64,000 bases of DNA from contig DAHUXD010000039.1 of assembly GCA_027307335.1 (NCBI GenBank), positions 11,625 to 75,624 on the forward strand, written 5' to 3'. Source of the DNA: Acidobacteriota bacterium. GTDB lineage: Bacteria; Acidobacteriota; Thermoanaerobaculia; UBA5066; Gp7-AA6. A program made the position numbers and the translations under genes. A model generated the notes under the pieces. That model was not told the origin of the DNA. It worked only from the letters and a program-made list of their open reading frames with translations, and did no database searches. Below, one piece after another: positions 37,394-59,767 of the stretch. Within the stretch, counting starts at the first letter, position 1; every line of letters starts with the position of its first letter.

Positions 37394-37409
37394 GGGGAGA
37401 GGTTGGCGA

Positions 37410-37449: not shown

Positions 37450-37472
37450 AGAAGGAATGAGGAGGTGACCAG

Positions 37473-37844: not shown

Positions 37845-37973
37845 CATCGAGTCGTCTTCGCCGGCCGGTCCTCCATTCTCTCGGGCCGGCTGCCGACGCG
37901 GCGTTCTCCCGCCGCGCGGCGGACGCGTGCGATACTCGCCGCCCGAGAACGTCCGTAACAGGAGAATGACGAC

Positions 37974-38426: not shown

Positions 38427-38428
38427 CC

Positions 38429-38935
38429 TTGAGCGGCGCGGGCGTCTCGATCGAGCGTCTGACGCCCTCCGACTGGGACGCCGTCCGCGGGATCTACCTC
38501 GAGGGAATCGCGACCGGCGACGCCACCTTCGAGACCGATGCGCCGGGATGGGAGATCTGGGACGGCGCGCACCGCCAGGACGCGCGGCTCGTCGCCCGCC
38601 GCGCCGGGCGCGTCGTGGGATGGGCCGCGCTGACGCGCGTCTCCGGGCGCTGCGTCTACGCGGGCGTCGCGGAGGTCAGCGTTTACGTCGCGGAGAGCGC
38701 GCGCGGCGAGGGCGTCGGCCGCGCGCTCCTCGAGGCGCTGATCGCCGCGTCGGAGCAGGCGGGCGTCTGGACGCTCCAGGCCGGAATCTTTCCCGAGAAT
38801 GCCGCGTCGATCGCGCTGCACGAGCGCTGCGGCTTCCGCATCGTCGGGCGGCGGGAACGGCTCGGCCGTCTCGGTCCGACGTGGCGCGACGTGATGCTGC
38901 TCGAGCGACGGAGCCCGCGCGTGGGCGCGAGCTGA
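38429..38935 (+). CDS. GNAT N-acetyltransferase (phosphinothricin acetyltransferase-like)
   Basis: VSVYVAESARGEGVGRALLEALIAASEQAGVWTLQAGIFPENAASIALHERCGF is the PAT-like core. TTG start inferred. Confidence 0.65.
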   Translation: MSGAGVSIERLTPSDWDAVRGIYLEGIATGDATFETDAPGWEIWDGAHRQDARLVARRAGRVVGWAALTRVSGRCVYAGVAEVSVYVAESARGEGVGRALLEALIAASEQAGVWTLQAGIFPENAASIALHERCGFRIVGRRERLGRLGPTWRDVMLLERRSPRVGAS

Positions 38936-38963
38936 GCCGCCGCGCTTTTCGAACGCGATCCCG

Positions 38964-41164: not shown

Positions 41165-41215
41165 CCGCGTTTTCCGCTTGACTTACGCCCTTTTGACGCC
41201 TAGTCTCGGCTCCCC
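41161..41215 (+). promoter_or_regulatory. candidate promoter region of dnaE2 (three TTGAC motifs spaced 15-17 nt)
   Basis: It is AT-richer than the genome, and TTGAC occurs at 41161, 41178 and 41193. No clear LexA box was recognised. Confidence 0.3.
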
Positions 41216-44200: not shown

Positions 44201-44581
44201 CAGACGGCGGAGATGACGGCCGGGCCGCACATGCTCGCGCACCTGCGGGACGGGCTCGCGCGCCGCGGCGTGATCCCCGCGCGGGATCTGCCGCGCCGCG
44301 CGGATGGCGACCGCGTCACGACCGCGGGCGCGGTGATCGTGCGGCAGCGGCCGGGGACGGCGAAGGGCTTCGTGTTCCTGACGCTGGAGGACGAGACCGG
44401 GATGCTCCAGGCGATCGTGCGGCCGGACCTGTTCAAGGAGCAGCGGGCGCTCGTCGTCGGCTCGGGCGCGCTGGTGGTCGAGGGCCGCCTCCAGAAGCAG
44501 GACGGCTCGATGTCGGTCAAGGCGGAGCGGTTCTGGACGATCCCGGAGTTCGAGAGCCTGCCGAGCCACGATTTCCGTTAG
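41216..44581 (+). CDS. dnaE2: error-prone DNA polymerase DnaE2 (ImuC)
   Basis: The PHP-domain start YSELRCASAFSFLDGASLPEDLVEEA is followed by Pol III alpha core motifs and a C-terminal OB fold. Upstream of the conserved N-terminus the frame keeps strong GC3 bias, so ATG 41216 is the likely start; GTG 41384 is an alternative. Confidence 0.85.
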   Translation: MADKRHRPSGSAPEMPPSRNMGVGNSSCGGRHSDADPLSSIVSAGARKEKLRHRDFVSSAPRHTKAPPYSELRCASAFSFLDGASLPEDLVEEAARLEIPAVALVDRNGVYGAPRFYKAAKAAGLRAIVGAEVTLEGGDKPRPYKRRPVGAALAAARPAPRLTLLVESRAGYRNLCRLITTGALGKAKGETAVTLDQVAAHAEGLHVLTGGDEGPAARALGKGGLDAAKDLLADLRAIFPGRLHVELQRHHLREEEHRNRALGDLARALKLPLVATNGVRYARTKDKELHDVLTSIRNHVTLDRAGRLLAAQRERHFRGSAAMRELFADRPDAVDAAAELARRLDFTLADLGYRFPEYPLPPGETPSSHLRRLTWNGARARFRPLTAKAQAQIEKELAMIEKLDLAGYFLIVHDVVRFCLEERILVQGRGSAANSAVCYALSITAVDPVKMELLFERFLSEERGEWPDIDLDLPSGDQRERVIQHVYGKYGPHGAGMTANVITYRDRSSAREVAKALGYSPEQVDALSKQLGGWNFGEIREPVEELEGEIAAAGFDPEERRARHFLRLFLQIQNLPRHLGQHSGGIVVAAGRLDEVVPLEPASMPGRVVVQWDKDDCADLGIVKVDLLGLGMLAAIEECIPMISTHEKVAVDLAHLPQDDPAVYGMLNAADTVGLFQVESRAQMASLPRNAPKCFYDIVVQVAIIRPGPIVGGMVHPFFDRRQGRAPVEYPDPCLEPILKRTLGVPLFQEQILKMAMVAAGFSGGEAEELRRAMGFKRSAERMESIETRLRLGMAARGIGEKARDQIVKCITSFALYGFPESHAASFALIAYASAYLKAHHPAAFLAALLNSWPMGFYHPATLVKDAQHHGTRVRPIDATRSGWKCRWEEGAVRLGMRFVKGLREEAGLSVERAQAERPFASIDDLARRSALRPGDLELLAHAGALSGFGKSRREALWQVSKVARRAGPLLDALPTDGVSPLPEMSPIEETRADYQTAEMTAGPHMLAHLRDGLARRGVIPARDLPRRADGDRVTTAGAVIVRQRPGTAKGFVFLTLEDETGMLQAIVRPDLFKEQRALVVGSGALVVEGRLQKQDGSMSVKAERFWTIPEFESLPSHDFR
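41624..41684. repeat. REP-like double-hairpin element, copy 1 (rearranged; in-frame inside dnaE2)
   Basis: GGCGGGGACAAGCCCCGCCCCTAC-13 nt-TAGGGGCGGCCCTTGCGGCCGCCC. The two hairpins and the CCCCTAC/GTAGGGG ends match the intergenic copies. It encodes GGDKPRPYKRRPVGAALAAARP. Confidence 0.55.
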
Positions 44582-44601: not shown

Positions 44602-44687
44602 GTCATCCCGAGGAGCGCAGCGACGAGGGATCCCTTTGAAGTCACCGCGGGGGCATCGAAGGGATCCCTCGCTTCGCTCGGGATGAC
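44602..44687. repeat. imperfect inverted repeat built from two GTCATCCCGAG...GGGATCC modules
   Basis: Left arm 44602-44633, right arm 44661-44687. The right arm reverse complement is GTCATCCCGAGCGAAGCGAGGGATCC, which I recognise as a widespread motif that translates as CHPERSEGS in misannotated ORFs. Confidence 0.55.
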
Positions 44688-44731
44688 AAGAAAAGGCAAC
44701 CTTCCGTTCCGAGCCTCGTAAACTCCTCCCG

Positions 44732-46978
44732 ATGCGTCCCGGCACCCTCGCCGCTCTGGCCGTGCTGTGCGCGCCCGTTCTCCTCGGCCAGGAGCAGAAG
44801 CCTCTGCCCGTCCCTCCGACCCTGAATCTGCCGCTCCTCAAGGGCCCGATCACGATCGACGGAGACCTCTCCGATCCGGCCTGGGCCGACGCGCTCGTCA
44901 TCGACACCTTCTACGAGTTCCAGCCCGGCGACGGAACCGTGCCGCCCGTCAAGACGATCGCGCGCGTCGGGCGCGACGACCGGTACCTCTACGCGTCGTT
45001 CTGGTGCGAGGAGCCGGACATGGGCAAGCTCCGCGCGCCGTTCGTCGACCGCGACGGCGTGACCGACCAGATGGACTACGTCGGCATCCTGCTCGACGTG
45101 GACAACGCGCGCCGCTCGGCCGTCGACTTCTGGATCAACCCGCGGGGCATCCAGACCGACTCGATGCTGAACGAGTCCCCCTTTGGCGAGGACACCTCGC
45201 CGGACTGGTTCTGGAACTCGGCCGGGAAGATCGGGACGAACTCGTGGACGGTCGAGGTCGCGATCCCGCTCGCCTCGCTCCGTTACCCGAAGAAGGACCC
45301 CCAGGACTGGGCGTTGATGGTCTACCGGGTCTGGCCGCGCGACTTCAATTACCAGTTCTACAGCGTCCGGATGCCGCGCGGTTCGAACTGCTTCCTCTGC
45401 TGGTCGGCGACCGTGCAGAGCATCGCCGGTCTGCCGCAGGGCATGCACTACGTCCTCGCGCCGTACGCGGCCGGGTTCTCCGACACGACGTATCCGCCCG
45501 ACGGCGTCGTGAACGCCGAACCCGAGACGAAGGACAAGGCCGAGGCCGGCGTGGACCTGAAGTGGCTGCCGGACGCGGGCACCATCGTCGACGCGACCAT
45601 CAACCCCGACTTCTCGCAGGTCGAATCGGACGTCGTGCAGATCGGCGTCAACGAGCGCTTCGCGCTCTTCTACCCGGAGAAGCGGCCGTTCTTCCTCGAG
45701 CAGGTCGATCTGCTGCAGACGCCGATCCAGGCGATCTACACGCGGACGATCACGGATCCTCTCTGGGGGGCGCGCCTGACGAGCCGCGCCGGCTCGACCT
45801 CCTACACGCTGCTCGCGACGGACGACCGCGGCGGCGGCACGGTCGTGATCCCGGGGCCCGTCTTCTCGGACACGGCGCCGCAGGATTTCCAGTCCTGGGT
45901 CGGCATCGGACGCGCGCGCCACGACATCGGCGCCTCGTACGTCGGCGTCGTCGGCACGGCGCGCGTCATCGAGGGCGGCGGCTACAACTACGTCGGCGGC
46001 GCGGACTTCCAGTGGCACCCGAACGACGCCGACCTCGTCTCGGGCCAGTACCTCTACAGCGTCTCCCGCGAGCCCGACAAGCCGAACCTCTATCCGGGAT
46101 GGACGGGTCAGGCTCTCGCGGGCTTCGGCTTGACGACGCAGTGGTCGCACAGCGACTACCACTGGGACTGGCTCCTGCAGTACGACGACTTCGCGGACGG
46201 CTTCCGCGCCGACGACGGCTTCGTGCCCCAGGTCGGCTACGAGCAGGGGACGTGGAACGGCGGATATCGCGTCTATCCGACCGGCTTCTTCTCGCGGCTG
46301 CGCGTGGGGACCGGCGGCAACTACTCGGTCGACCGCGGCGGCGCGCTCATCTCACGGAAGGCTTTCCCGTCGATCACCTTCCAGGCGATGGGCGGATGGA
46401 AGACCGAGTTCGACTACAACCTCGAGGCGGTCTCGATCGGCGGCCGGGAGCTCGACTACGACCGCTTCGTCTGGACGATGACGGCGTCGCCGTCGGCGTT
46501 CCTGCCGGTCGTCGGGCTCTCCGGCAACTACGGCGAGCAGCCGGACGTCGAGAACGTGCGCGTCGGGAAGGGCGGCGACGTGCTGCTGACCGCGCTGATC
46601 CGCCCGACCGACCACCTCGGGCTCGACCTGCGTCTCGAGCGCCGCTGGATCGACGAGACGGTCGGCGGGCTCGCGGGCAACCTCTTCACCGCGGACGTCG
46701 CGCGGCTGAAGGCCGTGTACGTCTTCAACGCGCGCATGCTCGTGCGCCTGATCGGCCAGTACCAGGACGTGCGCCGCGATCCGGCGCTCTGGATCCAGCC
46801 GGCCCTCGAGAAGGAGGGCGCGTTCGCCGGGTCGGTCCTCTTCTCGTACAAGCTCAACTGGCAGAGCGTCGTCTTCGCCGGCTACGGCGACGCGCGCGCC
46901 CTCGACGAGACCGGAACGCTGCTCCTGCCGACGGGGCGGCAGTTCTTCGTCAAGGTCTCGTACGCGTTCCAGCGCTGA
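44732..46978 (+). CDS. large secreted/outer-membrane protein (DUF5916/CBM9-like family candidate)
   Basis: A signal peptide (MRPGTLAALAVLCAPVLLG), 748 aa, and beta-rich Gly/aromatic-rich repeats. The family assignment is from memory. Confidence 0.6.
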   Translation: MRPGTLAALAVLCAPVLLGQEQKPLPVPPTLNLPLLKGPITIDGDLSDPAWADALVIDTFYEFQPGDGTVPPVKTIARVGRDDRYLYASFWCEEPDMGKLRAPFVDRDGVTDQMDYVGILLDVDNARRSAVDFWINPRGIQTDSMLNESPFGEDTSPDWFWNSAGKIGTNSWTVEVAIPLASLRYPKKDPQDWALMVYRVWPRDFNYQFYSVRMPRGSNCFLCWSATVQSIAGLPQGMHYVLAPYAAGFSDTTYPPDGVVNAEPETKDKAEAGVDLKWLPDAGTIVDATINPDFSQVESDVVQIGVNERFALFYPEKRPFFLEQVDLLQTPIQAIYTRTITDPLWGARLTSRAGSTSYTLLATDDRGGGTVVIPGPVFSDTAPQDFQSWVGIGRARHDIGASYVGVVGTARVIEGGGYNYVGGADFQWHPNDADLVSGQYLYSVSREPDKPNLYPGWTGQALAGFGLTTQWSHSDYHWDWLLQYDDFADGFRADDGFVPQVGYEQGTWNGGYRVYPTGFFSRLRVGTGGNYSVDRGGALISRKAFPSITFQAMGGWKTEFDYNLEAVSIGGRELDYDRFVWTMTASPSAFLPVVGLSGNYGEQPDVENVRVGKGGDVLLTALIRPTDHLGLDLRLERRWIDETVGGLAGNLFTADVARLKAVYVFNARMLVRLIGQYQDVRRDPALWIQPALEKEGAFAGSVLFSYKLNWQSVVFAGYGDARALDETGTLLLPTGRQFFVKVSYAFQR

Positions 46979-47056
46979 CGGAAGACCGCCTCCCCCCAGC
47001 CCTCTCTCCCTGAAGGGGGAGCGGGGGTTTGAAAGGACGCGTCCTCCAATGAAAAC

Positions 47057-47098
47057 TCTCTCCCCCCAGCGGGGGGAGAGGGGAGGGTGAGGGGGGAG
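47057..47098. repeat. G-rich hairpin element, copy C
   Basis: CTCTCCCCCC-AGC-GGGGGGAGAG is a perfect 10-bp stem, followed by GGGAGGGTGAGGGGGGAG, related to copies A and B. A second imperfect G/C hairpin lies at 46988-47027. Confidence 0.45.
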
Positions 47099-47137
47099 AA
47101 GGAACTTTCGCGTTGGCGCGGTTTCCCTCCTGACAGA

Positions 47138-50100
47138 ATGCCGACCGTGCTCTCCGTCTCGCAGCGGCTTCGGATCGCCGTCCTCGTGTCGGCGCTCGCG
47201 GGAATCGCGGCGCTCCCCGCCGCGCCGAAGCCCGCTCCGGCCGCAGCGCCCACGTGGGCCGAGGTGGATCGGCTCGTCAAGGACCAGAAGCTCCAGGAGG
47301 CGTCGGGTCTCGTCGACCGCCTCCTCGAATCGGCGAGGGAGCGCCACGACGAGGCCGGCTGGACGAAGGCGCTCGTCCGGGCCGTGCAGCTCCGCATCGG
47401 GCTCGGGAACTACGAGACCGCCGTCCGATTCCTGAAGGAGCAGCCCTGGCCGCCGGGGCTCCTGTCGCAGACGACGCTCGACCTGTTCTATGCGCAGGCG
47501 CTCGTCCAGTACGAGCGCGTCTACTCGTGGGAGATCGCGCAGCGCGAGTCGGTCGTGATCGAAGGCGATCTCGACCTGAAGCTCAAGACCCGCGACCAGC
47601 TCTACGAGGAGGCCCAGGGGGCCTACGCCCGCGTCTGGGCCCGTCGCGCCGAGCTCGGCGCGCTTCCCGTCGGCGTCCTCGCGGAGTACGTGGAACCGAA
47701 CGATTACCCGAAGGACGTCCGCGGCACGCTGCGCGACGCGGTCTCGTATCTCTATGCGGAGCTCCTCGCGGATTCGGCGCTCTGGAAACCGAACCAGGGG
47801 AGCGAGGTCTACCGGCTCGACCTCGCCGCCCTGCTCTCCGAGGACGGGGCCGCGGCGTCCCCGGCGCTCGCGGACCGGAACGCGCACCCGATTTCGAAGC
47901 TCGTCGCCGTTCTCGCCGATCTCGAGTCCTGGCACGCCGGCCGCGGGGATCGTCCGGCGGAGCTCGAGGCGCGGCTCGAGCGCGACCGCCGGCTGCATGC
48001 GGCGTATCCGACCCCCGAGGACCGCGAGCGCATCCGGAAGGACCTCGAGGCGAGACTGACGAAGTACCGGCAGATTCCGTGGTGGTCGATGGGCATGGCG
48101 CGGCTCGCCGAGCTCTGGCAGGCGGAGGACGAGCCGGACAACCTCGTCCACGCGCACGGTTCGGCGCTCGAGGGCGCGCGCGCCTTTCCGGAATCGCCGG
48201 GCGGCGGTCTCTGCGCGCGGATCCTCGACGCGATCGACGCGCCCGACTACCAGCTGACCGCGATGTCCTCGGACGCTCCCGATCGCCGCTCGATCGAAAT
48301 CGTCCACAGGAACCTCCCGCGGCTGTTCTTCCGGATCTACGCCGCGGACCTCGACCGGCGCATCGGCGAGCCGCGCTTCGACCTCAACCCGTCGGCCGAG
48401 GAGGTCCGCGCGCTGGTGCGCTCGGGGCGGCCGGCGTCGGCGTGGACCGAGGGTCTCCCGGCGACGCCGGACTACAAGAACCACCGGACGTTCGTGACGC
48501 CGAAGGCCGGCCGCGGGCTGTGGATCGTCGTCGCCTCGGCCCGCGCCGATTTCGCCGAGAGGGAGAACCGAGTGGTCTCGGTCGCGGTGCTCCTCGGCGA
48601 TCTCGTGATGCTGACCGACGCGGAGACCTCACACGTCGACACTCGCGTGGTCGACGGCTCGGGCGCGGCCGCCTCCGGGGCCGAGGTCACGCTGTACGCC
48701 TTCGACTGGCAGTCGGGGCGCTCGGCGCGCGTCGCCGCGGTCGTGACGGGCGCGGACGGGCTGGCGCGCTTCGACGGGGACCGCTCGGCCGATCGGCGCG
48801 CGCTTTTTCTCGTCGCACGGCGCCTCGGCGACGCCGCCGTGGACCGCAGCGCCTTCTCGCTCACGGCGCGGCCGCCCGCGGCGGAGACGGCCGCCGCGCT
48901 GGTGTACACCGACCGCGCCATCTACCGTCCGCTGCAGACCGTGAAGTGGAAGGTCGTGGCCTACGGCGGCCGCGCGGATCTCGGGCGGTTCCGCGTCTCG
49001 CCGCGGACACCCGTGACCGTCCGGCTGCGCGACCGCAACAACGAGGTCGTCGAGACGGCGACCGCGTTCACCGACGACTACGGCGCGGCGGCCGGCGAGT
49101 TCCGCATTCCCGCGGGGCGCGTGCTCGGCAGCTGGTCCGTCGAGTGCGATCCGAGGGGCTCGGCCGGAATCCAGATCGAGGAATACAAGCGGCCGACCTT
49201 CGAGGTGAAGTGGGAAGCGCCGAACGAGCCGCCGCGTCTCAACCGGCCGGCGGTCCTTCGCGGATCCGCGCGCTACTACTTCGGCCTGCCGGTCTCGGCC
49301 GGAAAGGTCCGCTGGCAGGTCTGGCGCCGCCCGGAGTTCCCGTGGTGGTGGCAGTGGCGCCACCCGTGGGTCGGCCGGGATGGCGGCGGAATCGTCGCGC
49401 AGGGCGAGGCGCCGCTGAAACCGGACGGCACGTTCGAAGCCGCCTTCACGCCGGCGGCCGACGAGCGCGCCGCGGACGCGAAGGAGCTCTCGTACCAGTT
49501 CCGCGCGACCGCGGACGTCACCGACGAGGGCGGAGAGACCCGCTCGGATGCGCGAGCGTTCACGCTCGGCTTCGTCGCGGTGAGCGCCTCGCTCTCGCTC
49601 GAGAGCGGCTTCTTCCGCGCGGGCCGGCCGGGAGTCGTGACGGTTGTGCGAACGGACCTCGACGGCGCGCCGCGGCCGGGCGTGGGAACGTGGCGCCTCG
49701 TTTCGCTCGCGGGTCCCGACCGCGCGCTCCGGCCTTCCGAGGTGCCGGCGCCGCCGCACTTCGACGACACGGTCACGACGCCGGGGGACCGGCTGCGTCC
49801 CCGCTGGGCGACCGCGGAGTCGCTGAGGGTGACGCTCCAGGGCTGGAAGGACGGGCCCGAGAGAGACCGGGGGAGCGTCACGCACGACGCTCAGGGGCGC
49901 GGGCGCATCGACCTCCCGGCCCTTCCCGCGGGCGCCTGGCGCCTGCGGTACGAGACTCGGGACGAATCGGGCGGCGTCTGCGCGCGCGAGGAGGACTTTC
50001 TGGTCGCCGGCGCGACGACGCCGGTGCCGGTCGCGGCGGTGCTGCTCGTCGAGCGAGAGTCCGTCGAGGTGGGGGGCGTCGCCCGCGTCCTCGCCTTCGC

Positions 50101-53100
50101 GGGACTCCCGGGCCAGCCGTGGGTGCTCGAACGCCTCCGGTCGGGCGAAGTCGTCTCGCGCGAGACGCTGTCGGGAGACGCAAAGAGCGTGTTCGAGATT
50201 CCGATCCGCGAGGAGGATCGCGGCGGCTTCGCGCTCCGCCTCTCGCTCGTCTCGGACCACCAGGTGATCACCGAGAGCGCGTCCATCCTCGTCCCGTGGA
50301 CGGACCGGGAGCTCTCGGTGTCGTTCGCCACGTTTCGCGACCGGATCCGGCCCGGCGCTCGGGAGACGTGGCGCGTCACGGTCAAGGCGCCCGCGGGCGC
50401 CGCCGGGGAGGAACGGACCGCGCAGCTCCTGGCTTACATGGTCGACCGCAGCCTCGACGCGTTCGGCGGTTACTACCCGCCGAACCCCCTCTCGCTCTAT
50501 CCGAATCACGCGAACGCGGGATATCTGCGATCGAGCGTCAGCGCCGCGGGCGCCGCCTGGGTCTTCGACAACGCCTTCGGCGCGCGAGGCGCACCCGTGC
50601 TCCTCCATGGCGATCGTCCGAAGTTTCTCGAGGGCTATGGGATCGGGGGCCCGGGCGTGCGGATGTTCGCGCAGCGGGCGATGGCGAAGTCCGAGGCGGG
50701 CGCGGCGAACGCCGCCGTGGATGCGATGAAGGAAGGCGTCGAGGGCGGCCTCGCCGGTGCGCCCGCGCCGGCCTCCGAGCCGGCGCCGGGGAGGGGAGCG
50801 GTCGCGACCGGCGAGGCGCCGCCGTCGCCCGTCCTCCGCAGCGACTTCTCCGAGACCGCGTTCTGGAAGCCGCAGCTGCTGACCGACGCGGACGGCTCCG
50901 CCGTCATCGAGTTCCAGGTGCCCGACTCGGTGACGTCGTGGAACGTCTGGGTCCACGCGATCACCAGGGACATCAAGGCCGGTTCGGTCCACCGCGAGAC
51001 GCGAAGCGTGAAGGACCTGATGGTCCGCCCCTACGTGCCGCGCTTCCTGCGCGAGGACGACCGCGGCGAACTGAAGGTCGTCGTGAACAACGCGTCCGAG
51101 CGGCCCATGAGCGGCACCGTGGCGCTCGACATCCTCGACGCGGAGACGAACCGGAGCGTCCTCGCCGATTTCGGGCTCGCTCCCGACGCCGCCTCCCGCG
51201 CCTTCGCCGCGGCCGCCGGAGGGTCCGCCGACGCCACCTTCACGCTCGCCGCGCCGAAGCGCGTCGGGGCGTATGCGATCCAGGCGACGGCGGTCTCCGG
51301 AGACTTCTCGGACGGGGAATTGCGGCCGGTTCCCGTCCTGCCCGGACGGATGCAGCTTTCGCAGTCGCGCTTCGCGGCCCTGCGGGGCGGCGACACGCGC
51401 ACGCTCTCCTTCGCCGACATGGCGAAGACGGACGACCCGAGCCGGGTGAACGAGCAGCTCGCCGTGACGGTCGACGCGCAGCTGTTCTATTCGGTGCTGA
51501 ATGCGCTTCCCTATCTGGTGAACTATCCGTACGAGTGCGTCGAGCAGACGCTCAACCGCTTCGTCTCGACGGGCATCGTCTCGTCGCTGTTCCGGCAGTA
51601 CCCCGCTGTCGAGAGAATGGCTCAGGACCTCGCGAAGCGCGACACGCCGCTCGAGGCGTGGGCGGCGCCGGATCCGACCCGACGCATGGCGCTCGAGGAG
51701 ACGCCGTGGCTCGAGGAGGCGAAAGGCGGGAAGGGCGCCGGCTCCGGGCTCGTGAAGGTGCTCGATCCGCGCGCGGCGGGGGCCGAGCGCGAGGCGGCCC
51801 TCGCGAAGCTGCGCCGGGCCCAGACCGCGTCGGGGGCCTTCCCGTGGTGGTCCGGCGGGCCGCCGTCGCCCTACATGACGCTGTACGTGATGTACGGCTT
51901 CGCCAAGGCGGCGGAATTCGGCGTCGACGTGCCGAGAGACGTGGTCGCGCGCGGCTGGGCCTACCTCGCCGCGCACTATCGCGGCGAGTACGAGAAGCGC
52001 ATGGCCGCGGACCGCTGCTCGCCGGAGTGGCTGACCTTCCTCGCGTACGTCGCGACGTGCTACCCCGATCCGTCCTGGATGGGCGACGCGCTGACGCGCG
52101 CGGAGCGGGAAGCGATCCTCGCGTTCTCCTTCCGGCACTGGCGGGAGCAGTCGCCGTACCTGAAGGGGATGCTCGCGCTCGCCCTGAAGCGGTCGGGACG
52201 CGGCGACGACGCGCGGCGCGTCTGGGCGAGCATCATGGACTCGTCGAAGACCGACGCCGACCTCGGCACGTACTGGGCGCCGGAGGACCGGGCGTGGCTC
52301 TGGTACGAGGACACGATCGAGACGCAGGCGTTCGCGCTGCGTGCGCTGATGGAGATCTCCCCGACGGATCCGCGCCGGCACGGCCTCGTGCAGTGGCTCT
52401 TCCTGAACAAGAAGCTCAACCAGTGGAAGTCGACGCGGGCGACGGCGGAGGCCCTGTACGCGCTCGTCGCGTACCTGAAGAAGGAGGGCGTGCTGGCGGC
52501 GCGCGAGTCGGTCGCGGTCGCGCTCGCGGGACAGAAGACGGTCTTCGACTTCGAGCCGGATCGGTACACCGGGAGTCGGGACCAGGTCGTCGTGCCGGGG
52601 GAGCGGATCGATCCGAAGCGTGACGCCGACGTGGTGGTGTCGAAGACGGGGACGGGGCTCGCGTTCGCGTCGGCGACCTGGAGCTTCTCGACCGATCGGC
52701 TTCCCGCGGAGGAGCGCGGCGACCTCTTCGCCGTGTCGCGGCGATACTACCGGCACGAGCCCACGCCGTCGGGCGTCGAGCTCCGGCCGCTCGCCGAGGG
52801 GGCGGCGCTTTCGACGGGCGACGAGGTCGAGGTGCAGCTGTCCATCCGCGCGAAGCACGCGGCCGAGTACGTCCACCTGCGCGATCCGCGCGCGGCGGGG
52901 CTCGAGCCGGGCGTCGCGACGTCCGGCTACCGCTGGGACCTCGGCCTCGTCCGCTACGAGGAGATCCGCGACTCGGGCACGAATTTCTTCTTCGAGTGGC
53001 TGCCGGCGGGGGAGTACACGCTGAAGTACCGCGTGCGGGCGAACATGGGCGGCACCTTCCGGGTCGGACCGGCGACGCTCCAGTCGATGTACGCGCCGGA

Positions 53101-53143
53101 GTTCTCGGCCTACTCGGCGGGAACGGTGATTACGGTCCGGTAG
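47138..53143 (+). CDS. alpha-2-macroglobulin family protein (thioester-containing, 2001 aa)
   Basis: A signal peptide (MPTVLSVSQRLRIAVLVSALAGIAALPA), repeated MG-like beta domains, the thioester motif YECVEQT, and an alpha-helical A2M/TED region. Confidence 0.85.
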   Translation: MPTVLSVSQRLRIAVLVSALAGIAALPAAPKPAPAAAPTWAEVDRLVKDQKLQEASGLVDRLLESARERHDEAGWTKALVRAVQLRIGLGNYETAVRFLKEQPWPPGLLSQTTLDLFYAQALVQYERVYSWEIAQRESVVIEGDLDLKLKTRDQLYEEAQGAYARVWARRAELGALPVGVLAEYVEPNDYPKDVRGTLRDAVSYLYAELLADSALWKPNQGSEVYRLDLAALLSEDGAAASPALADRNAHPISKLVAVLADLESWHAGRGDRPAELEARLERDRRLHAAYPTPEDRERIRKDLEARLTKYRQIPWWSMGMARLAELWQAEDEPDNLVHAHGSALEGARAFPESPGGGLCARILDAIDAPDYQLTAMSSDAPDRRSIEIVHRNLPRLFFRIYAADLDRRIGEPRFDLNPSAEEVRALVRSGRPASAWTEGLPATPDYKNHRTFVTPKAGRGLWIVVASARADFAERENRVVSVAVLLGDLVMLTDAETSHVDTRVVDGSGAAASGAEVTLYAFDWQSGRSARVAAVVTGADGLARFDGDRSADRRALFLVARRLGDAAVDRSAFSLTARPPAAETAAALVYTDRAIYRPLQTVKWKVVAYGGRADLGRFRVSPRTPVTVRLRDRNNEVVETATAFTDDYGAAAGEFRIPAGRVLGSWSVECDPRGSAGIQIEEYKRPTFEVKWEAPNEPPRLNRPAVLRGSARYYFGLPVSAGKVRWQVWRRPEFPWWWQWRHPWVGRDGGGIVAQGEAPLKPDGTFEAAFTPAADERAADAKELSYQFRATADVTDEGGETRSDARAFTLGFVAVSASLSLESGFFRAGRPGVVTVVRTDLDGAPRPGVGTWRLVSLAGPDRALRPSEVPAPPHFDDTVTTPGDRLRPRWATAESLRVTLQGWKDGPERDRGSVTHDAQGRGRIDLPALPAGAWRLRYETRDESGGVCAREEDFLVAGATTPVPVAAVLLVERESVEVGGVARVLAFAGLPGQPWVLERLRSGEVVSRETLSGDAKSVFEIPIREEDRGGFALRLSLVSDHQVITESASILVPWTDRELSVSFATFRDRIRPGARETWRVTVKAPAGAAGEERTAQLLAYMVDRSLDAFGGYYPPNPLSLYPNHANAGYLRSSVSAAGAAWVFDNAFGARGAPVLLHGDRPKFLEGYGIGGPGVRMFAQRAMAKSEAGAANAAVDAMKEGVEGGLAGAPAPASEPAPGRGAVATGEAPPSPVLRSDFSETAFWKPQLLTDADGSAVIEFQVPDSVTSWNVWVHAITRDIKAGSVHRETRSVKDLMVRPYVPRFLREDDRGELKVVVNNASERPMSGTVALDILDAETNRSVLADFGLAPDAASRAFAAAAGGSADATFTLAAPKRVGAYAIQATAVSGDFSDGELRPVPVLPGRMQLSQSRFAALRGGDTRTLSFADMAKTDDPSRVNEQLAVTVDAQLFYSVLNALPYLVNYPYECVEQTLNRFVSTGIVSSLFRQYPAVERMAQDLAKRDTPLEAWAAPDPTRRMALEETPWLEEAKGGKGAGSGLVKVLDPRAAGAEREAALAKLRRAQTASGAFPWWSGGPPSPYMTLYVMYGFAKAAEFGVDVPRDVVARGWAYLAAHYRGEYEKRMAADRCSPEWLTFLAYVATCYPDPSWMGDALTRAEREAILAFSFRHWREQSPYLKGMLALALKRSGRGDDARRVWASIMDSSKTDADLGTYWAPEDRAWLWYEDTIETQAFALRALMEISPTDPRRHGLVQWLFLNKKLNQWKSTRATAEALYALVAYLKKEGVLAARESVAVALAGQKTVFDFEPDRYTGSRDQVVVPGERIDPKRDADVVVSKTGTGLAFASATWSFSTDRLPAEERGDLFAVSRRYYRHEPTPSGVELRPLAEGAALSTGDEVEVQLSIRAKHAAEYVHLRDPRAAGLEPGVATSGYRWDLGLVRYEEIRDSGTNFFFEWLPAGEYTLKYRVRANMGGTFRVGPATLQSMYAPEFSAYSAGTVITVR

Positions 53144-53191
53144 GGGCGGCCCTCGTGGCCGCCCGCGGGCGGGGACGAGCGCCGCCCCTAC
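53140..53191. repeat. REP-like double-hairpin element, copy 2
   Basis: GTAGGGG-hairpin-GCG-hairpin-CCCCTAC. The TAG at 53141-53143 is the A2M stop. The CTA at 53188-53190 is the stop of the convergent YceI gene. Confidence 0.65.
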
Positions 53192-53787
53192 CGCTTTGAA
53201 GGCACCCGCGTCGCCAGCAGACTGATGTCCACGGTGACCGTGTTGCCCGCGACCTTCGCCTCGGGATTGCCCGTCCACGCCATGCCGAACTCGCGCCGAT
53301 CGAACGCGAGCGTCGCGTGGATGCCGAGGCGGTCGTCCGGGTGCGGGCCGTCGAAGCGGCCGCGGATCTCGAAGGGAAGAGTGATCTCCTTCGTCACGCC
53401 ATGGACCGCCAGAGGTCCGACCGCTTCCCACCGCCCCTTGACCTTGCGGATGCGCCGGCTCTCGAAGCGGATCTCCGGGTACTTCTGGGCGTCCAGGAAC
53501 GCCGGGGCCCGCAGCCGCGCGTCCCAGGATTCGCTCCCGGTCGCGATGCTCGAGGTCTCGATGACCGCGACGACCTTCGCCTGCGAGAGGTCCCGCGCCT
53601 TGCCGGCCGACATCTTCACGTCGTAGCGCATGAACTTCCCGGTGATCTTCGAGACACCGAGCACGGGCACGGAGAACTGCACGTTCGAGTGCTCGACGTC
53701 CAGCGTGTAGTCGGCGGCGCGCAGCACGGTCGAGAGCAGGAGAAAAAGGGCCGCGGCGGCGCCGGCGCGACGAAACGTGGTTCGCAT
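53188..53787 (-). CDS. YceI-family periplasmic protein
   Basis: A signal peptide is followed by YTLDVEHSNVQFSVPVLGVSKITGKF and a YceI-like beta-barrel pattern. Confidence 0.8.
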   Translation of the reverse strand: MRTTFRRAGAAAALFLLLSTVLRAADYTLDVEHSNVQFSVPVLGVSKITGKFMRYDVKMSAGKARDLSQAKVVAVIETSSIATGSESWDARLRAPAFLDAQKYPEIRFESRRIRKVKGRWEAVGPLAVHGVTKEITLPFEIRGRFDGPHPDDRLGIHATLAFDRREFGMAWTGNPEAKVAGNTVTVDISLLATRVPSKR

Positions 53788-53850
53788 GGTGTGCTCGGCC
53801 GATCTTATCCGGGCGCGAAGATAGAATCCCCCCGCTCTTTCGGAGGAACA
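53788..53850. promoter_or_regulatory. divergent promoter region between yceI-like and M1 peptidase genes
   Basis: AT-richer, with a TAGAAT -10-like hexamer and GGAGGA before the M1 peptidase ATG. Confidence 0.25.
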
Positions 53851-56697
53851 ATGAGACGCTTCGCCGCCGCCCTGGCGCTCGCTCTGGCGCCGCTCGCCGC
53901 CCTCGCGCAGGTCCTGCCCGGCCACCGCCTGCCCGACGGGGCCGACCGCCCGGTCCGGGACCGCGCGTACCACATCGAGAAATACGTCGCGGAGCTCTCC
54001 TTCGACATGGAGAAGGAGGAGATCGCCGGAACGGCGACGGTCACGTTCCAGTCGCTGCGGGCGCCGCTCGACACGCTCTCGCTCGACGCGGCGCGGCTCG
54101 ACGTCTCGCGCGTCGAGCGCGACGGAAAGCCTCTCCAGTTCCAGGTGGATTCGAAGAACTTCAAGCTGAACGTGGCGCTCGGAGCGCCGCTCCCGCTGGG
54201 CCAGTCCGCCACCGTCCGCGTCGCCTATCGCGCGCACCCGCGGGTCGGTCTCTACTTCTTCCCCGGCTCCGGCAAGGAGGAGGCGCAGGCCTGGAACTAC
54301 GGCGAGGGAGGCCTGCACGATGCCTGGCTCCCGATCTACAACGACACGAACGACCGCTTCGCCGTCGAGTTCGTGGTGACCGTTCCGAAGGGTTTCACCG
54401 CCGTGTCGAACGGAACGCTCGAGGGGCCCAGGGAGAACGCCGATGGCTCGCGCACGTTCCACTGGGTCGAAGAGAAGCCGATCCCGAATTACCTGATGAC
54501 CGTCGACGTCGGCCACTTCGCGCGGGTGCCGCTCGCGGATGCGAAGGTCGGCGACCGGTCGGTGCCGCTGGCCGTGTGGACGCGACCCGGCGGCGAGGAC
54601 GCCGCCCGGTACACGTTCGGCGACACGCCGAAGATGGTCGAGTTCTTCTCGCAGAAGATGGGCTACCCGTACCCGTGGGTGAAATACGACCAGGTCGTCG
54701 TCCGCGACTTCGCGGTCGGCGCGATGGAGACCACGACCGCGACGGGCTTCGGCGCCTCGCACGTCCACGTCGCGGGCGATCCGCCCGACTCGGGCCCCGA
54801 CTTCTCCGAGGCGTGGCCCGTCTTCACGGTCGAGGACACGATCTCGCACGAGCTCGCGCACCACTGGTTCGGCGACCTCGTGACCTGCCGCTCGATCGGA
54901 TCGATCTGGCTGAACGAGTCCTTCGCGACGTTCTGGCACACGGTCTGGAACCAGCACGCCCACGGCGAGGACGACCTGACCTACCAGCGCTGGTGGTACC
55001 TGAACAAGTACGTCGACCACACCCGGGAGACGGGCGAGGTTCGCCCGATGGAGTACCTGAAGTACACGGAGCCGACCGCGATGTATCAGGAGGAGCTGAC
55101 GTACGTGAAGGGCTCCCTCGTCCTCCACATGCTGCGGCACTTCCTCGGCGACGAGGACTTCTACCGGATGATCGCGTCGTACCTGCAGCGGCACCAGTTC
55201 GGCAGCGTCGAGTCGGCGGACCTCTACGAGGCGATCGAGCTCGCCGCGGGGCACAACTTCTCGTGGTTCTTCCAGGACTGGATCGTCGGGGGCGGAGGGC
55301 ATCCCCGGTTCGACGTCTCCTACCGGTGGGTCCCCGAGCGCCAGCAGGTCGACGTCACGGTCAAGCAGATCCAGGCGGACCTGCCGTTCGAGAACGACTT
55401 CCGGCTGCCGGTCGAGATCGAGGTCGTGGATGCCTCCGGCGCGGCCGCGACGCACCGCGTGGAGCTTTCGCGCTGGTCGACGACGGTGGCGCTGCCGGCG
55501 GCGAGCCGGCCGCGGCGCGTCACGTTCGATAAGGGCGGCTGGCTCGTGTGCGAGGTCAAGTACGAGCGGCCGATCGGCGAGGTGCTCGACGAGCTCGACC
55601 ACGCGGACCTCTCGAACCGCCTTCGGGCCGCGCCGCAGCTCGCGGACGACTTCGGCCGCGAACCGCGCGCCGTCGCGGCGCTGTCGCGGGTCCTCGCCGA
55701 CCCGGCGTCGCACTGGGGCCTCAAGCAGGAGGCGGCGCTCGACCTCGGCCGCGCGGGCGGGGCCTCGGCGGCGCGCGCGCTCGAGAAGGCGCTCGCGTCG
55801 GAGCCGAACCCGCGCGTGCGCCGCGCGGTCGCCATCGGCCTCGGCACGTGCGGCGAGGCGTCGTCGGCCGCGGCTCTCCGTCGCGCCGTCGAGACCGACC
55901 GCGCCGAGGACGTGATCGGCGCCGCCGAGATCTCCCTCGGGCGGATCGGCGCTGCGGGCACGAAGGACTTCCTCGTCCGGCAGCTCGCGCGGGACTCGCG
56001 CTGGTGGGACTCGATCCGGGTGTCGGCAGTCAGCGGCCTCGGCAAGCTCGACGATCCGACGCTCGCCGGCACGTTCTCCGGATACACCGATCCGAAATAC
56101 GTTCCGGAGCTCCGGTCGGCCGCGCTTTCGGGATGGCTCGCCGCCGCCCCGGACGATCCGAATCTGTCGGCCGCGCTCCGCACGCTGACGAACGACCGCA
56201 ATCGCGGGATCCGCGAGGACGCGGTCAAGAAGCTCGCCGCGCTCCACCACGCGTCGGACCTCGCGCTGCTCAAGGAGCTCGAGGCAGATCCGGATCCGAC
56301 GATCGCCTACTTCGCGAAGGCGGGGGCGGAGGAGACGGAGGGTTTCGTGAAACGGTATGGGCGGGGCTTGTCCCCGCCCGCTCGCGGGCGGCCGCAAGGG
56401 CCGCCCCTACGGCGGAGTGAGCCTCAGGCCGCGGCCTCCCCGTCCCTCACGATCCTTCCGTCCTTGATCTCCACCACCCGTCCCGCGCGCCGGGCGAGCG
56501 TCAGGTCGTGCGTGATGACGACGAGCGTCGAGCCCTGCTGCCAGAGCTCGGTGAAGAGGCCCATGATGTCGCCGCCGGCCGAAGTGTCGAGGTTCCCGGT
56601 CGGCTCGTCCGCGAGGATCACGTCCGGCTTCATCGCGAGCGCGCGGGCGATCGCGACTCGCTGCATCTGCCCGCCCGAGAGCTCGGTCGGCTTGTGA
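53851..56697 (+). CDS. M1-family zinc aminopeptidase (aminopeptidase N-like); ORF as read extends past the probable ancestral stop at 56356-56358
   Basis: A signal peptide, the GAMEN-like VGAMETT, HELAHHWFGDLVT (HEXXH) and NESFATF, and C-terminal HEAT-like repeats. The last ~113 codons are S/P/R-rich and antisense to the ABC ATPase gene. Confidence 0.8.
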   Translation: MRRFAAALALALAPLAALAQVLPGHRLPDGADRPVRDRAYHIEKYVAELSFDMEKEEIAGTATVTFQSLRAPLDTLSLDAARLDVSRVERDGKPLQFQVDSKNFKLNVALGAPLPLGQSATVRVAYRAHPRVGLYFFPGSGKEEAQAWNYGEGGLHDAWLPIYNDTNDRFAVEFVVTVPKGFTAVSNGTLEGPRENADGSRTFHWVEEKPIPNYLMTVDVGHFARVPLADAKVGDRSVPLAVWTRPGGEDAARYTFGDTPKMVEFFSQKMGYPYPWVKYDQVVVRDFAVGAMETTTATGFGASHVHVAGDPPDSGPDFSEAWPVFTVEDTISHELAHHWFGDLVTCRSIGSIWLNESFATFWHTVWNQHAHGEDDLTYQRWWYLNKYVDHTRETGEVRPMEYLKYTEPTAMYQEELTYVKGSLVLHMLRHFLGDEDFYRMIASYLQRHQFGSVESADLYEAIELAAGHNFSWFFQDWIVGGGGHPRFDVSYRWVPERQQVDVTVKQIQADLPFENDFRLPVEIEVVDASGAAATHRVELSRWSTTVALPAASRPRRVTFDKGGWLVCEVKYERPIGEVLDELDHADLSNRLRAAPQLADDFGREPRAVAALSRVLADPASHWGLKQEAALDLGRAGGASAARALEKALASEPNPRVRRAVAIGLGTCGEASSAAALRRAVETDRAEDVIGAAEISLGRIGAAGTKDFLVRQLARDSRWWDSIRVSAVSGLGKLDDPTLAGTFSGYTDPKYVPELRSAALSGWLAAAPDDPNLSAALRTLTNDRNRGIREDAVKKLAALHHASDLALLKELEADPDPTIAYFAKAGAEETEGFVKRYGRGLSPPARGRPQGPPLRRSEPQAAASPSLTILPSLISTTRPARRASVRSCVMTTSVEPCCQSSVKRPMMSPPAEVSRFPVGSSARITSGFIASARAIATRCICPPESSVGL
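56355..56410. repeat. REP-like double-hairpin element, copy 3 (leading GTAGGGG altered to GTATGGG)
   Basis: TATGGGCGGGGCTTGTCCCCGCCC-GCTCGC-GGGCGGCCGCAAGGGCCGCCC-CTAC. Confidence 0.65.
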
Positions 56698-57113
56698 TCC
56701 ATGCGATCGCCGAGGCCGACCTTCGTCAGGAGCTCCACGACCCGCTCGCGCCGCTTCCTCGGCGGCACGCCCCCGAAGAGGAGCGGCAGCTCGACGTTCT
56801 CGAAGGCCGAGATCTGCGACAGGAGATTGAAGCCCTGGAAGACGAAGCCGACGCGGCGGTTGCGCACGTCGGCGAGCGCGTCGCGCGTGAACTTCGAGAC
56901 GTCCTCGCCGCCCAGGCGGTACCGCCCCTCGGTCGGCGTGTCGAGGCAGCCGATCAGGTTCATCAGCGTGGACTTCCCGGAACCCGACGGCCCGACGACC
57001 GCCACGAACTCGCCCTGCTGAACGGAGAAGTCGATGCCCATCAGGGCCTCGACCTTCACCTTGCCGGTGTCGTACACCTTCCGGATCCCCTGCATCTCGA
57101 TGATGGCGGTCAT
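56424..57113 (-). CDS. ABC transporter ATP-binding protein (MacB/LolD-like ATPase)
   Basis: Walker A GPSGSGKST, signature LSGGQMQRVAIARAL, Walker B ILADEPTGNLD. Confidence 0.85.
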   Translation of the reverse strand: MTAIIEMQGIRKVYDTGKVKVEALMGIDFSVQQGEFVAVVGPSGSGKSTLMNLIGCLDTPTEGRYRLGGEDVSKFTRDALADVRNRRVGFVFQGFNLLSQISAFENVELPLLFGGVPPRKRRERVVELLTKVGLGDRMDHKPTELSGGQMQRVAIARALAMKPDVILADEPTGNLDTSAGGDIMGLFTELWQQGSTLVVITHDLTLARRAGRVVEIKDGRIVRDGEAAA

Positions 57114-57125
57114 GGCATCTCCATC

Positions 57126-57196
57126 GGGGTCAGGTCTCTAGAAGAGCGTTCTCGTCTCATTTCTGGACCAAACCGCTCATTGAGAGACCTGACCCC
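57126..57196. repeat. structured inverted-repeat element, copy 2 (GGGGTCAGGTCTCT...AGAGACCTGACCCC)
   Basis: Perfect 14-bp terminal stems around a ~43-nt loop. It fills the gap between the permease stop and the ATPase start. Confidence 0.55.
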
Positions 57197-57197
57197 A

Positions 57198-58454
<1,257 letters not shown>

Positions 58455-58465
58455 GGCTTCGATCG

Positions 58466-59701
58466 CTACAGCTTCATCGCGACCACGGGGTCGAGACGCG
58501 AGGCCTCGCGCGCCGGGAAGTAGCCCGCGACGAGGCCGGTCAGCCCGAGGACCGCCGCGGTCAGGAGCGCGACGCCCATCGAGACGTCCGGATCGCCGAC
58601 GTACTGCGTCACCTTGAAGGACGGGAAGACCGCGCAGACCGCCATCGAGATCCCGAAGCCCACGAGCCCGCCCATCGCGGTGATGAGCAGCGTCTCGAGC
58701 AGGAACTGGCGCAGGATCCACGGCGTCTTCGCGCCGAGGGCCATCTTGATGCCGATCTCCTTGGTGCGCTCCTCGACGACGACGTTCATGATGTTCGACA
58801 CCCCGATGCCGCCGACGATGAGGGTGAACGAGCCGATGATGCCGAGGAACAGCCGGAACGACAGGAAGAACGTCGCGAGGAACGCGAACTGCTCGGTCGC
58901 GTCCCAGACCGAGAAGGCCTCCTTGTCCTCGGGATCGAACCGCTGGCGGCCCGCGAGCACGCGGCGCACGCCGTCGGTGACGGCCTTGCTGTCCTTCATG
59001 ACCGCAGGCTGGTAGATGAGGTTGTCGACCCACTTCGAGCCCGTCAGCGCGCGGAACGTCGTGCCGGGAATGAAGCCCTTGCCGTTGTCGCGGCCGCTGT
59101 AGCTCGACTGCTGGATCTTCTCCTCGAGGACGCCGATCACGAGGAACGGCGAGCCCTTCAGCATCACCGTCTTGCCGACCGGGTCGGTCCCCTTGCCGAA
59201 GACCTGCTCGGCGAGCTTCCAGCCGATGAAGAGGACGCGCCGCTGCTCGTCCATGTCGGTCGGGTTGATGAACCGGCTGCCCGGCTGCGGGTTGATGTTG
59301 CGCATGAAGCCGAACTCCGGTGCAACGCCGGACACGTCGACCGCGACCGTCTTCGTTCCGTAGTTCATCTTCATCGTGTCCGAGTACTCGCTCGAGACCG
59401 CGCGGATGCCCGGCGCCTGCCGGCGGATCGCCTCGACGTCGTCCTCGTTGATGCGGATCTTCCGCCCCTTGCCGAGCCCCTCGAACGGGATCGACGTGAG
59501 GCCCGGCCAGGCGATGCAGATGCCGTCGCCGAGGCCCGCGGCGTTGACCACCATCTGGCTCTGCATGCCCTTGCCGAAGGCGAGGAGCAGCGTGACGGAG
59601 ACCGTTCCCCAGACGATGCCGAAGACGGTCAGGAACGTGCGCAGCTTCTGGCTGCGCATGTCGCGCCACATCTGGCGGAGGGCGTCGCGGAGGGAGAGCA
59701 C
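58466..59701 (-). CDS. ABC transporter permease (FtsX/MacB-like), first of two
   Basis: MLSLRDALRQMWRDMRSQKLRTFLTVFGIVWG...EERTKEIGIKMALGA shows FtsX topology. Confidence 0.8.
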   Translation of the reverse strand: MLSLRDALRQMWRDMRSQKLRTFLTVFGIVWGTVSVTLLLAFGKGMQSQMVVNAAGLGDGICIAWPGLTSIPFEGLGKGRKIRINEDDVEAIRRQAPGIRAVSSEYSDTMKMNYGTKTVAVDVSGVAPEFGFMRNINPQPGSRFINPTDMDEQRRVLFIGWKLAEQVFGKGTDPVGKTVMLKGSPFLVIGVLEEKIQQSSYSGRDNGKGFIPGTTFRALTGSKWVDNLIYQPAVMKDSKAVTDGVRRVLAGRQRFDPEDKEAFSVWDATEQFAFLATFFLSFRLFLGIIGSFTLIVGGIGVSNIMNVVVEERTKEIGIKMALGAKTPWILRQFLLETLLITAMGGLVGFGISMAVCAVFPSFKVTQYVGDPDVSMGVALLTAAVLGLTGLVAGYFPAREASRLDPVVAMKL

Positions 59702-59715
59702 GTCAGAGATCCGTC

Positions 59716-59767
59716 GTAGGGGCGGGGCTCGTCCCCGCCCGCGGGCGGCCGCAAGGGCCGCCCCTAC
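59716..59767. repeat. REP-like double-hairpin element, copy 4
   Basis: GTAGGGGCGGGGCTCGTCCCCGCCC-GCG-GGCGGCCGCAAGGGCCGCCC-CTAC. Confidence 0.65.

Follow-up and report, generated by a model that had tools for sequence, protein, structure and literature searches.

GTAG-tagged REPs are known to provide TAG stop codons to the open reading frames that flank them, and REPs lying in frame inside genes have been reported too (Di Nocera, De Gregorio & Rocco 2013, PMC3733652). The host phyla listed for these elements are the Proteobacteria, the Cyanobacteria, the Chloroflexi, and the PVC phyla (PMC3733652). The GTAG tetranucleotide is recognised by the RAYT/TnpAREP protein, and in the S. maltophilia system a GTAC abolished cleavage (Corneloup et al. 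2021, PMC8266576). The REPs of the window analyzed here (the whole stretch of DNA, 64 kb in length) resemble the elements described in PMC3733652 in that they are short GC-rich palindromic hairpins in the 20-40 bp range that form inverted doublets between convergent genes. The present host, in contrast to the listed phyla, is a member of the Acidobacteriota (Thermoanaerobaculia). REP-supplied stop codons are thus already published, and the biology underlying our locus is real but described, here in Acidobacteriota.

The locus contains the following features:

53851..56355, plus strand: M1-family aminopeptidase coding sequence in its expected form, 835 codons (Pfam and orthologues)
56356..56358, plus strand: TAT at the expected stop codon of the M1 gene, with a T at 56358 that is private to the window (sequence and orthologue/assembly comparison)
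56356..56697, plus strand: 113-codon run-on, a "shadow" ORF, plus TGA, antisense to the ABC ATPase gene (codon-position GC, no family match)
56355..56379, plus strand: left REP unit, GTATGGGCGGGGCTTGTCCCCGCCC, canonical GTAG mutated (8-bp stem, 5-nt loop)
56386..56410, minus strand: right REP unit, GTAGGGGCGGCCCTTGCGGCCGCCC, in an inverted doublet with the left unit, REPIN/BIME-like (8-bp stem, 5-nt loop)
56424..57113, minus strand: convergent ABC transporter ATPase, MacB/LolD-like, 229 aa (Pfam ABC_tran, 3e-34)

The M1 protein matches the full model of Peptidase_M1 (PF01433, 5e-44), as well as Peptidase_M1_N (PF17900) and HEAT_2. Its translation has an N-terminal signal-like segment, followed by the GAMET and HELAH...E zinc motifs (HELAHHWFGDLVTCRSIGSIWLNESF), which correspond to the GxMEN-like and HExxH-18-E motifs of the catalytic domain, and by C-terminal HEAT repeats. 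Across the end of the gene, the window reads ...GTG AAA CGG TAT GGG CGG GGC..., and the preliminary description was right in pointing out that TAT is present at 56356-56358 where a TAG was expected, so the stop is absent. From the ATG at 53851, the ORF encodes 948 aa up to the TGA at 56695-56697, as compared to 835 aa up to the expected stop, and it thus does continue for 113 run-on codons to 56697, as had been claimed. The antisense overlap with the ABC ATPase gene, estimated at about 270 nt, amounts to 274 nt.

The terminus of the 835-aa form is conserved. Our orthologue comparison covered 120 listed M1 homologues, and the stop codon was scored at the DNA level at 15 related loci. The 21 nearest orthologues among the matches listed share 73-88% identity and, one fragment excepted, have lengths of 831-846 aa; 19 of these 21 end with ...E.F.K[KR] exactly at the position of the TAT. 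All close orthologues, with lengths of 831-837 aa, have the C-terminal form ...EETEGF[LV]K[KR]*, which means that the C-terminus had been predicted exactly with ...EETEGFVKR. The proposed search for a long tail conserved among orthologues identified none with a tail: not one of the 120 listed homologues covers it, with query coverages of at most 90%. At the DNA level, the stop codon is TAG in 12 related loci and TGA in three. Because TAG is also found at this position in orthologues without any REP, the M1 REP sits on an ancestral TAG and has not created the stop. A scan of genome contigs with the M1 protein gave a best identity of 89%, and the metagenome contigs contained no exact match to the junction pattern in which the key base was given as N.

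The REP family in the window is real, because GTAGGGGCGGSSC has seven exact matches in the 64 kb, as compared to 0.02 expected from shuffles. This number is in line with a family that has many dispersed, mostly extragenic copies. Each of the four REP loci of the window is built as an inverted pair, REPs are also found in frame inside a dnaE2-like gene, and further copies are present in the loci L005, L011, L021, and L022. The M1 stop codon is expected within the 5' tetranucleotide of the GTAG-type doublet 56355-56410, whose two units both have perfect 8-bp stems and 5-nt loops, with hairpins at 56359-56379 and 56386-56406. GTAG is found in 7 of the 8 units in the window, with GTAT as the sole exception, and in 14 of 15 units across five genomes. 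This exception is the left M1 unit, in which the unpaired 5' GTAG is replaced by GTAT in the window and by GTAA in the GCA and Logan contigs (see below); its partner has GTAG. Because of this replacement, the left unit is a decayed member of the GTAG-type family. The known role of GTAG as stop codon of a neighboring gene is seen at a second doublet of the window, and for the M1 gene itself in the orthologues L001, L004, and L010:

53140..53191, no strand assigned: sister REP doublet in which the GTAG at either end provides the TAG stop of a convergent gene (sequence)

At this sister doublet, the A2M-like gene ends with the TAG at 53141-53143 and the YceI gene with the TAG at 53190-53188 on the minus strand. 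The preliminary description ascribed a TAG stop to the remaining REP copies, which holds for this doublet, but not for the doublets 59716-59767 and 41623-41684. The M1 copy differs from the described systems in the fourth GTAG base: the read-level contigs have an A at this position, and the window has a T.

REPs close to stop codons are reportedly able to lower expression, with ribosome stalling and tmRNA involved, an observation ascribed to Liang, Rudd and Deutscher in 2015. The M1 gene shares the geometry that reportedly leads to stalling and trans-translation, as its REP hairpin starts 1 nt past the stop codon; the phylum differs. A terminator scan predicted no T-tract terminator at the M1 3' end, where only the REP hairpins are found. 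A frameshift rescue at the REP hairpin was also considered; the nearest out-of-frame stop, a TGA in the -1 frame, lies at 56418-56420, and no slippery site was evident. A tRNA/tmRNA scan of the window gave no match.

Shadow ORFs antisense to genes are common knowledge in high-GC genomes, as are stop-loss artefacts in draft and MAG assemblies. As in such shadow ORFs, the third codon positions of the M1 tail coincide with those of the ATPase gene on the opposite strand. It carries a non-coding signature: its GC contents by codon position are 0.54/0.71/0.90, as compared to 0.70/0.47/0.94 in the M1 core, and a GC1 below GC2 is an antisense signature, whereas coding sequences of this type have GC1 above GC2 together with a high GC3. 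No family match was found when the tail was searched against Pfam and NCBIfam. Its length is ordinary at this GC content: when the stops of 38 window genes were removed in silico, the median run-on was 97.5 codons, and 16 of the 38 reached at least 113 codons, so that a similar run-on would be expected behind almost any window gene once its stop is removed. The ORF list for this region also contains antisense frames of 671, 1069, and 1740 codons. The 113-codon continuation is therefore not a coding sequence but the kind of open shadow frame that is usual opposite a high-GC gene. The L011 locus resembles the stop-loss artefacts, being another run-on of the M1 gene, which arises there from a 1-nt insertion that results in a 1136-aa ORF.

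The M1 stop is TAA in three independent assemblies of the same strain, all of which encode the 835-aa protein: GCA_027313945.1 and the Logan contigs SRR10333321_14386 and SRR10333320_78403, which are from separate runs. The contig DAHVCS010000256.1 of GCA_027313945.1 aligns to positions 34732-64000 of the window without gaps at 99.97% identity, reads GTAAGGG (TAA) at the site, and has its M1 protein called at 835 aa. The preliminary description had named a G at 56358 in the raw reads as the observation that would speak against a run-on; G is absent, but the base is A in the Logan assemblies from both runs, and since TAA is a stop as well, the sense of this check holds. The claimed change from TAG to TAT is an inference: the orthologues have TAG, but other assemblies of the strain have TAA, and the codon directly ancestral to TAT was most likely TAA.

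Over about 23.2 kb, the window differs from the Logan contigs at only three positions (55634, 55662, and 56358), all of them transversions and all private to the window. The two besides 56358 are:

55634, plus strand: C, where all three other assemblies have G; CGG to CCG, R595P (assembly comparison)
55662, plus strand: A, where all three other assemblies have C; GAC to GAA, D604E (assembly comparison)

These two positions are 724 and 696 nt upstream of 56358, respectively, and all three differences thus fall in the last 725 nt of the M1 gene. By our own calculation, three sites placed at random in 23.2 kb would all lie within 725 nt with a probability of about 0.003. The remaining 22.5 kb or so of the comparison show zero differences, synonymous sites included. 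R595 is invariant in 40 of 40 orthologues, and D604 is a D in 38 of 40, and the private changes (R595P, D604E, and the stop loss) look unfiltered by selection. The window differs from the GCA_027313945.1 contig at seven positions, again all transversions. That record has private transversions of its own, at 39583, 42653, 44466, and 57546: at the two testable sites, 39583 and 57546, the Logan contigs side with the window, and its dnaE2 gene contains a nonsense codon (GAG to TAG) at the window-equivalent position 42653. A literature search on the run and assembly accessions gave no matches.

As to the general quality of the window assembly, there are no indels relative to the other assemblies, and no broken genes were found in the stretches checked; this is not a generally poor assembly, an aspect that speaks against an artefact. 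Chains of overlapping same-strand ORFs, which could have indicated a generally error-prone assembly, were resolved by Pfam into distinct small genes whose domains are full-length. A further aspect of this kind is that "private" differences between same-strain records could be true between-sample variants, because at 39583 and 57546 the Logan contigs match the window and not the GCA record.

Given the stop at this position in three same-strain assemblies and in all orthologues, the tail most probably reflects either an error of the assembly or a private mutation of very recent origin, and not a real protein extension. Between these two, we favor with some reservation the view that the T at 56358 is an assembly artefact. 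In this explanation, the M1 stop, which coincides with the 5' GTAG of a REP doublet between two convergent genes, is TAG in orthologues, TAA in the strain (three assemblies), and TAT in the window alone, and the T at 56358 together with the two private transversions upstream would be consensus or assembly errors in one record. Misassembly mediated by the REPs was dismissed as the source of the T, as every other REP copy would give G and not T. It is less probable, although a possibility to be taken seriously, that the allele is real and that a single strain or sub-population has very recently lost the stop by a change from TAA to TAT. The base is present in the sequence of an otherwise clean assembly without indels, and three private changes in one gene, of which R595P and the stop loss look damaging, are what a dying allele would show. 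Moreover, the nonsense codon in dnaE2 of the GCA record suggests that damaging private variants may circulate, and the run-on of the same gene in L011 is independent. On the other hand, zero differences in the other 22.5 kb leave no time for a neutral decay that added two hits within 725 nt, a transversion-only spectrum is unusual for natural variation, and the M1 gene is intact in two public runs and a deposited MAG. In addition, no gene for the 948-aa product was found in the contig collection, including the Logan assemblies of public runs. If the allele is real, R595P and D604E would be part of one decaying haplotype, or they would stem from a clustered mutational event. With about the same probability as a real allele, the three clustered transversions would record one patch of error-prone repair, by which the exported M1 peptidase lost its REP-embedded stop. 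If the transcript read into the ATPase gene, the peptidase would gain a basic, Cys-containing, unstructured tail of 113 residues; if the mRNA 3' end were at the REP hairpins, no stop would be reached, and the product would be degraded after tmRNA rescue. In both cases, the M1 gene would be under inactivation, and a real allele would be an ordinary loss-of-function variant, albeit one that provides a snapshot of how REP-borne stop codons render genes fragile.

That the extension is functional, with a new domain overprinted antisense to the ABC ATPase gene, we regard as extremely improbable. An ORF that is open for 113 codons is the sole point in its favor, to be set against its absence from all listed orthologues and from the same strain elsewhere (15 loci and three assemblies with a stop), its antisense codon-position composition and lack of a family match, and a length that is ordinary at this GC content. 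Among the three options offered in the preliminary description, an error is thus favored, a private mutation is possible, and a genuine extension is rejected; the M1 extension is not a real feature and not biology worth following. The case calls for caution, as a single wrong stop-codon base in a 71% GC genome yields a plausible extension of about 100 codons that overlaps a neighboring gene, and annotation pipelines will call such false extensions. Here, the answer came quickly once other, independent assemblies of the strain were compared.

The ABC ATPase gene opposite the tail closes an adaptor-permease-permease-ATPase operon, according to the gene tables of the identical contig. With respect to REP mobility, GTAG is nearly invariant in the REP family of the window, as in the RAYT systems of PMC8266576, and by analogy with these systems, GTAT or GTAA at the fourth position is expected to abolish cleavage, because of which the left REP unit is probably immobile. 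A tblastn search detected no RAYT gene within the window. In L004, L010, and L019, the corresponding intergenic site harbors a RAYT-like Y1 transposase (72.9 bits against NF047646, below the cut-off of 80), which is flanked by a different REP type.

The M1 aminopeptidase gene of the window lacks a stop codon after its 835 codons. The window's closest relatives place it in Thermoanaerobaculia (Acidobacteriota). At 56356-56358 we read TAT directly (context ...GTG AAA CGG TAT GGG CGG GGC...), and the frame remains open up to TGA 56695-56697, making 948 codons in total and 113 extra ones. This agrees with the preliminary description, which had reported the stop-codon loss, the run-on to 56697, and an antisense overlap of about 270 nt with the ATPase gene, measured here as 274 nt. 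The TAT forms part of the opening tetranucleotide of a REP doublet (56355-56410), whose units are separated by a 6-nt spacer.

From ATG 53851, + strand: M1-family aminopeptidase, Pfam Peptidase_M1 (5e-44), Peptidase_M1_N and HEAT_2
56355-56379, + strand: left REP unit, GTATGGGCGGGGCTTGTCCCCGCCC, 8-bp perfect stem, 5-nt loop
56386-56410, - strand: right REP unit, GTAGGGGCGGCCCTTGCGGCCGCCC, 8-bp perfect stem, 5-nt loop
56424-57113, - strand: convergent ABC ATPase gene, overlapped by the last 274 nt of the M1 run-on

A C-terminus near ...EETEGFVKR had been expected from orthologues, and the comparison bore this out. The 21 closest listed homologues (73-88% identity) have 831-846 aa, bar one fragment, and 19 of them end in ...EETEGF[LV]K[KR] or a close variant, precisely at the TAT position, while remoter relatives carry about 10-14 additional residues at most. 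The stop position is occupied by TAG in 12 fetched orthologous loci (L001, L004-L010, L012, L014, L017, L021) and by TGA in three (L002, L003, L019). As many of the fetched loci have no REP 3' of the stop, TAG is the ancestral M1 stop, on which the REP sits and which it did not create.

The idea of a genuine 3' extension did not hold up. Query coverage was at most 90% of the 948 aa for every one of the 120 listed homologues, leaving the tail uncovered, and the tail had no Pfam or NCBIfam match. Its GC content by codon position was 0.54/0.71/0.90, compared with 0.70/0.47/0.94 in the M1 core and 0.68/0.43/0.94 in the ATPase gene. A GC1 below GC2 together with high GC3 marks the antisense of a real gene in the frame that shares third positions, where stops are rare. 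When stop loss was simulated for 38 window genes, the median run-on was 97.5 codons, and 16 of the 38 ran on for at least 113 codons. Long shadow ORFs opposite real genes show how easily frames stay open at this GC content (about 71% in the window):

48629-53851, - strand: antisense shadow ORF, 1740 codons
53188-56397, - strand: antisense shadow ORF, 1069 codons
56508-58523, + strand: antisense shadow ORF, 671 codons

An M1 orthologue (74%) in another MAG, MFD05442.bin.1.110 (locus L011, CAVZKA010000001.1, 6478-7411), has independently lost its stop in a comparable way. There, a 1-nt insertion (TTT C ACG AAG AAG TAG) immediately ahead of the last three M1 codons lets the ORF run on to 1136 aa, antisense to the ABC ATPase gene but in another frame than the window tail. 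As run-ons of this size are ordinary here, judging from the 38-gene test, the shadow ORFs, and this locus, the length of the tail is no evidence of function, and a functional extension is extremely improbable.

Same-strain assemblies were found by look-up of window proteins. An exact look-up of the ABC ATPase gave contig DAHVCS010000256.1 of GCA_027313945.1, whose alignment to window 34732-64000 (29.3 kb) is gap-free and differs at just 7 sites. In that contig, the M1 call has 835 aa, and the codon in question is TAA within a REP reading GTAAGGG. The YceI, permease, Na+/H+ exchanger, and DUF5916 proteins led to Logan contigs, which are direct assemblies of the public runs SRR10333320 and SRR10333321. 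Together they span 34434-42537, 44660-53169, 53160-56964, and 56944-59740, about 23.2 kb of the window, and are 100% identical to it save three positions, at which both runs match the GCA contig against the window:

55634: window C, other three assemblies G; CGG to CCG, R595P
55662: window A, other three assemblies C; GAC to GAA, D604E
56358: window T, other three assemblies A; TAA to TAT, stop to Tyr

Of 40 orthologues, all have R595 and 38 have D604. The remaining differences (42653, 39583, 44466, and 57546) are transversions of the GCA_027313945.1 record itself (L028/L027). The Logan contigs carry the window's base at 39583 and 57546, so both differences are private to the GCA record; at 42653, GAG of the window is TAG there, which splits the dnaE2-like gene into 479-aa and 625-aa calls. 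Every one of the 7 changes separating the two records is a transversion, an odd spectrum. The TAG in the change described as TAG to TAT holds for orthologues, but the same strain in the other assemblies has TAA; the most parsimonious history is a TAG ancestor that became TAA, likewise a stop, in this strain, with TAT confined to the window.

For three window-private differences in 23.2 kb to fall within 725 nt has P ~0.003 (range of three uniform points). All three are transversions, and for all 7 differences from the GCA contig to be transversions has P ~0.06 if all substitution types are equally likely, and a lower one under natural transition bias. Two of the three seem damaging, namely proline for the invariant arginine in a HEAT-like helix and the lost stop, and the remaining ~22.5 kb hold zero synonymous differences. 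The pattern does not resemble natural variation that has passed through selection, and a dead gene has had no time to decay neutrally; it resembles unfiltered noise in a single consensus. Speculatively, one bad read pair from a thinly covered high-GC stretch would match the spacings of 28 nt and about 700 nt. From these comparisons, we consider an artefact of the window's assembly probable. A gene with a 948-aa product was not found in the contig collection, Logan assemblies of public runs included.

A real private allele is the distinctly less favored alternative; one clustered mutational event in a private lineage is likewise less likely than noise in one consensus. The artefact reading is weakened by the lack of indels in the window relative to the other assemblies and by the fact that broken genes were not found in the stretches checked. 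REP-driven misassembly was rejected as the source of the T, as it would have given G at 56358, which likewise weakens the artefact reading. The TAT is a single-base difference private to one assembly, at a REP-embedded stop and followed by an ordinary shadow ORF; although the base is present in the window, no real biological feature corresponds to it.

If the allele were real, its consequences would depend on transcription. The hairpins begin 1 nt past the lost stop, and no T-tract terminator was predicted, only the REP hairpins being present. An mRNA ending at these hairpins would leave ribosomes without a stop, with tmRNA rescue and degradation of the product. REPs near stop codons reportedly reduce expression via trans-translation, a finding attributed to Liang, Rudd and Deutscher in 2015. 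Read-on transcription would instead give an exported peptidase with a basic, Cys-containing, disordered tail, and translation would run into the ATPase gene from its 3' end, in antisense. Either outcome would be a loss of function. As fourth-position tetranucleotide mutants were not cleaved in vitro (PMC8266576), the left unit with GTAA or GTAT should also be uncleavable by RAYT.

The REP family is real, as GTAGGGGCGGSSC occurs 7 times in the window versus 0.02 expected, and four related genomes hold more copies. Fourteen of 15 units in the window and these genomes start with GTAG, the sole exception being the unit at the M1 stop; the element there otherwise fits a GTAG REP doublet in its hairpins, dispersed copies, and inverted pairing. 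Four doublets lie in the window:

41623-41684: in frame within the PHP domain of a dnaE2-like DNA polymerase III alpha gene (ORF 41204-44581, + strand), GTAG ends pointing inwards with 12 nt of spacer between them
53140-53191: TAG stops for each gene of the convergent pair, encoding a bacterial alpha-2-macroglobulin-like protein of 2018 aa and a YceI-family protein
56355-56410: at the M1 stop
59716-59767: no stop codon given

The claim that the other copies supply a TAG stop hence applies to 53140-53191 only, and not to 59716-59767 or 41623-41684, the latter inserting about 21 codons without a stop (...EVTL EGGDKPRPYKRRPVGAALAAARPAP RLTLLVES...). In L001, a related locus, the large alpha-2-macroglobulin-like gene ends at TGA, 13 nt ahead of a degenerate doublet copy (GCAG...). 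Several Logan contigs break inside doublets (L029 ends at window 53169, L031 and L032 start at 53160, and L034 ends at 59740), consistent with many genome-wide copies.

The GTAG REPs of Di Nocera et al. (PMC3733652) provide TAG stops for flanking ORFs and have been found inside ORFs, DnaE2 genes among them, and the window shares both features with them, stop-codon supply and a REP within a dnaE2-like gene. A cognate RAYT gene was not found within the 64-kb window by tblastn. The same M1/ABC intergenic site contains a RAYT-like gene, accompanied by another REP type, in the related loci L004, L010, and L019, and the transposase is present there in L006 too:

L004, 5506-6750: RAYT-like Y1 transposase, 337 aa, PF01797; NF047646 at 72.9 bits (cut-off 80)

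Arrays of another GTAG repeat, GTAGGGGTCAACGCTGAAATCCTGAATCGCGGG, flank this transposase, and the M1 stop codon is provided by the array's first GTAG. GTAG elements seem to have landed repeatedly at the M1/ABC intergenic site.
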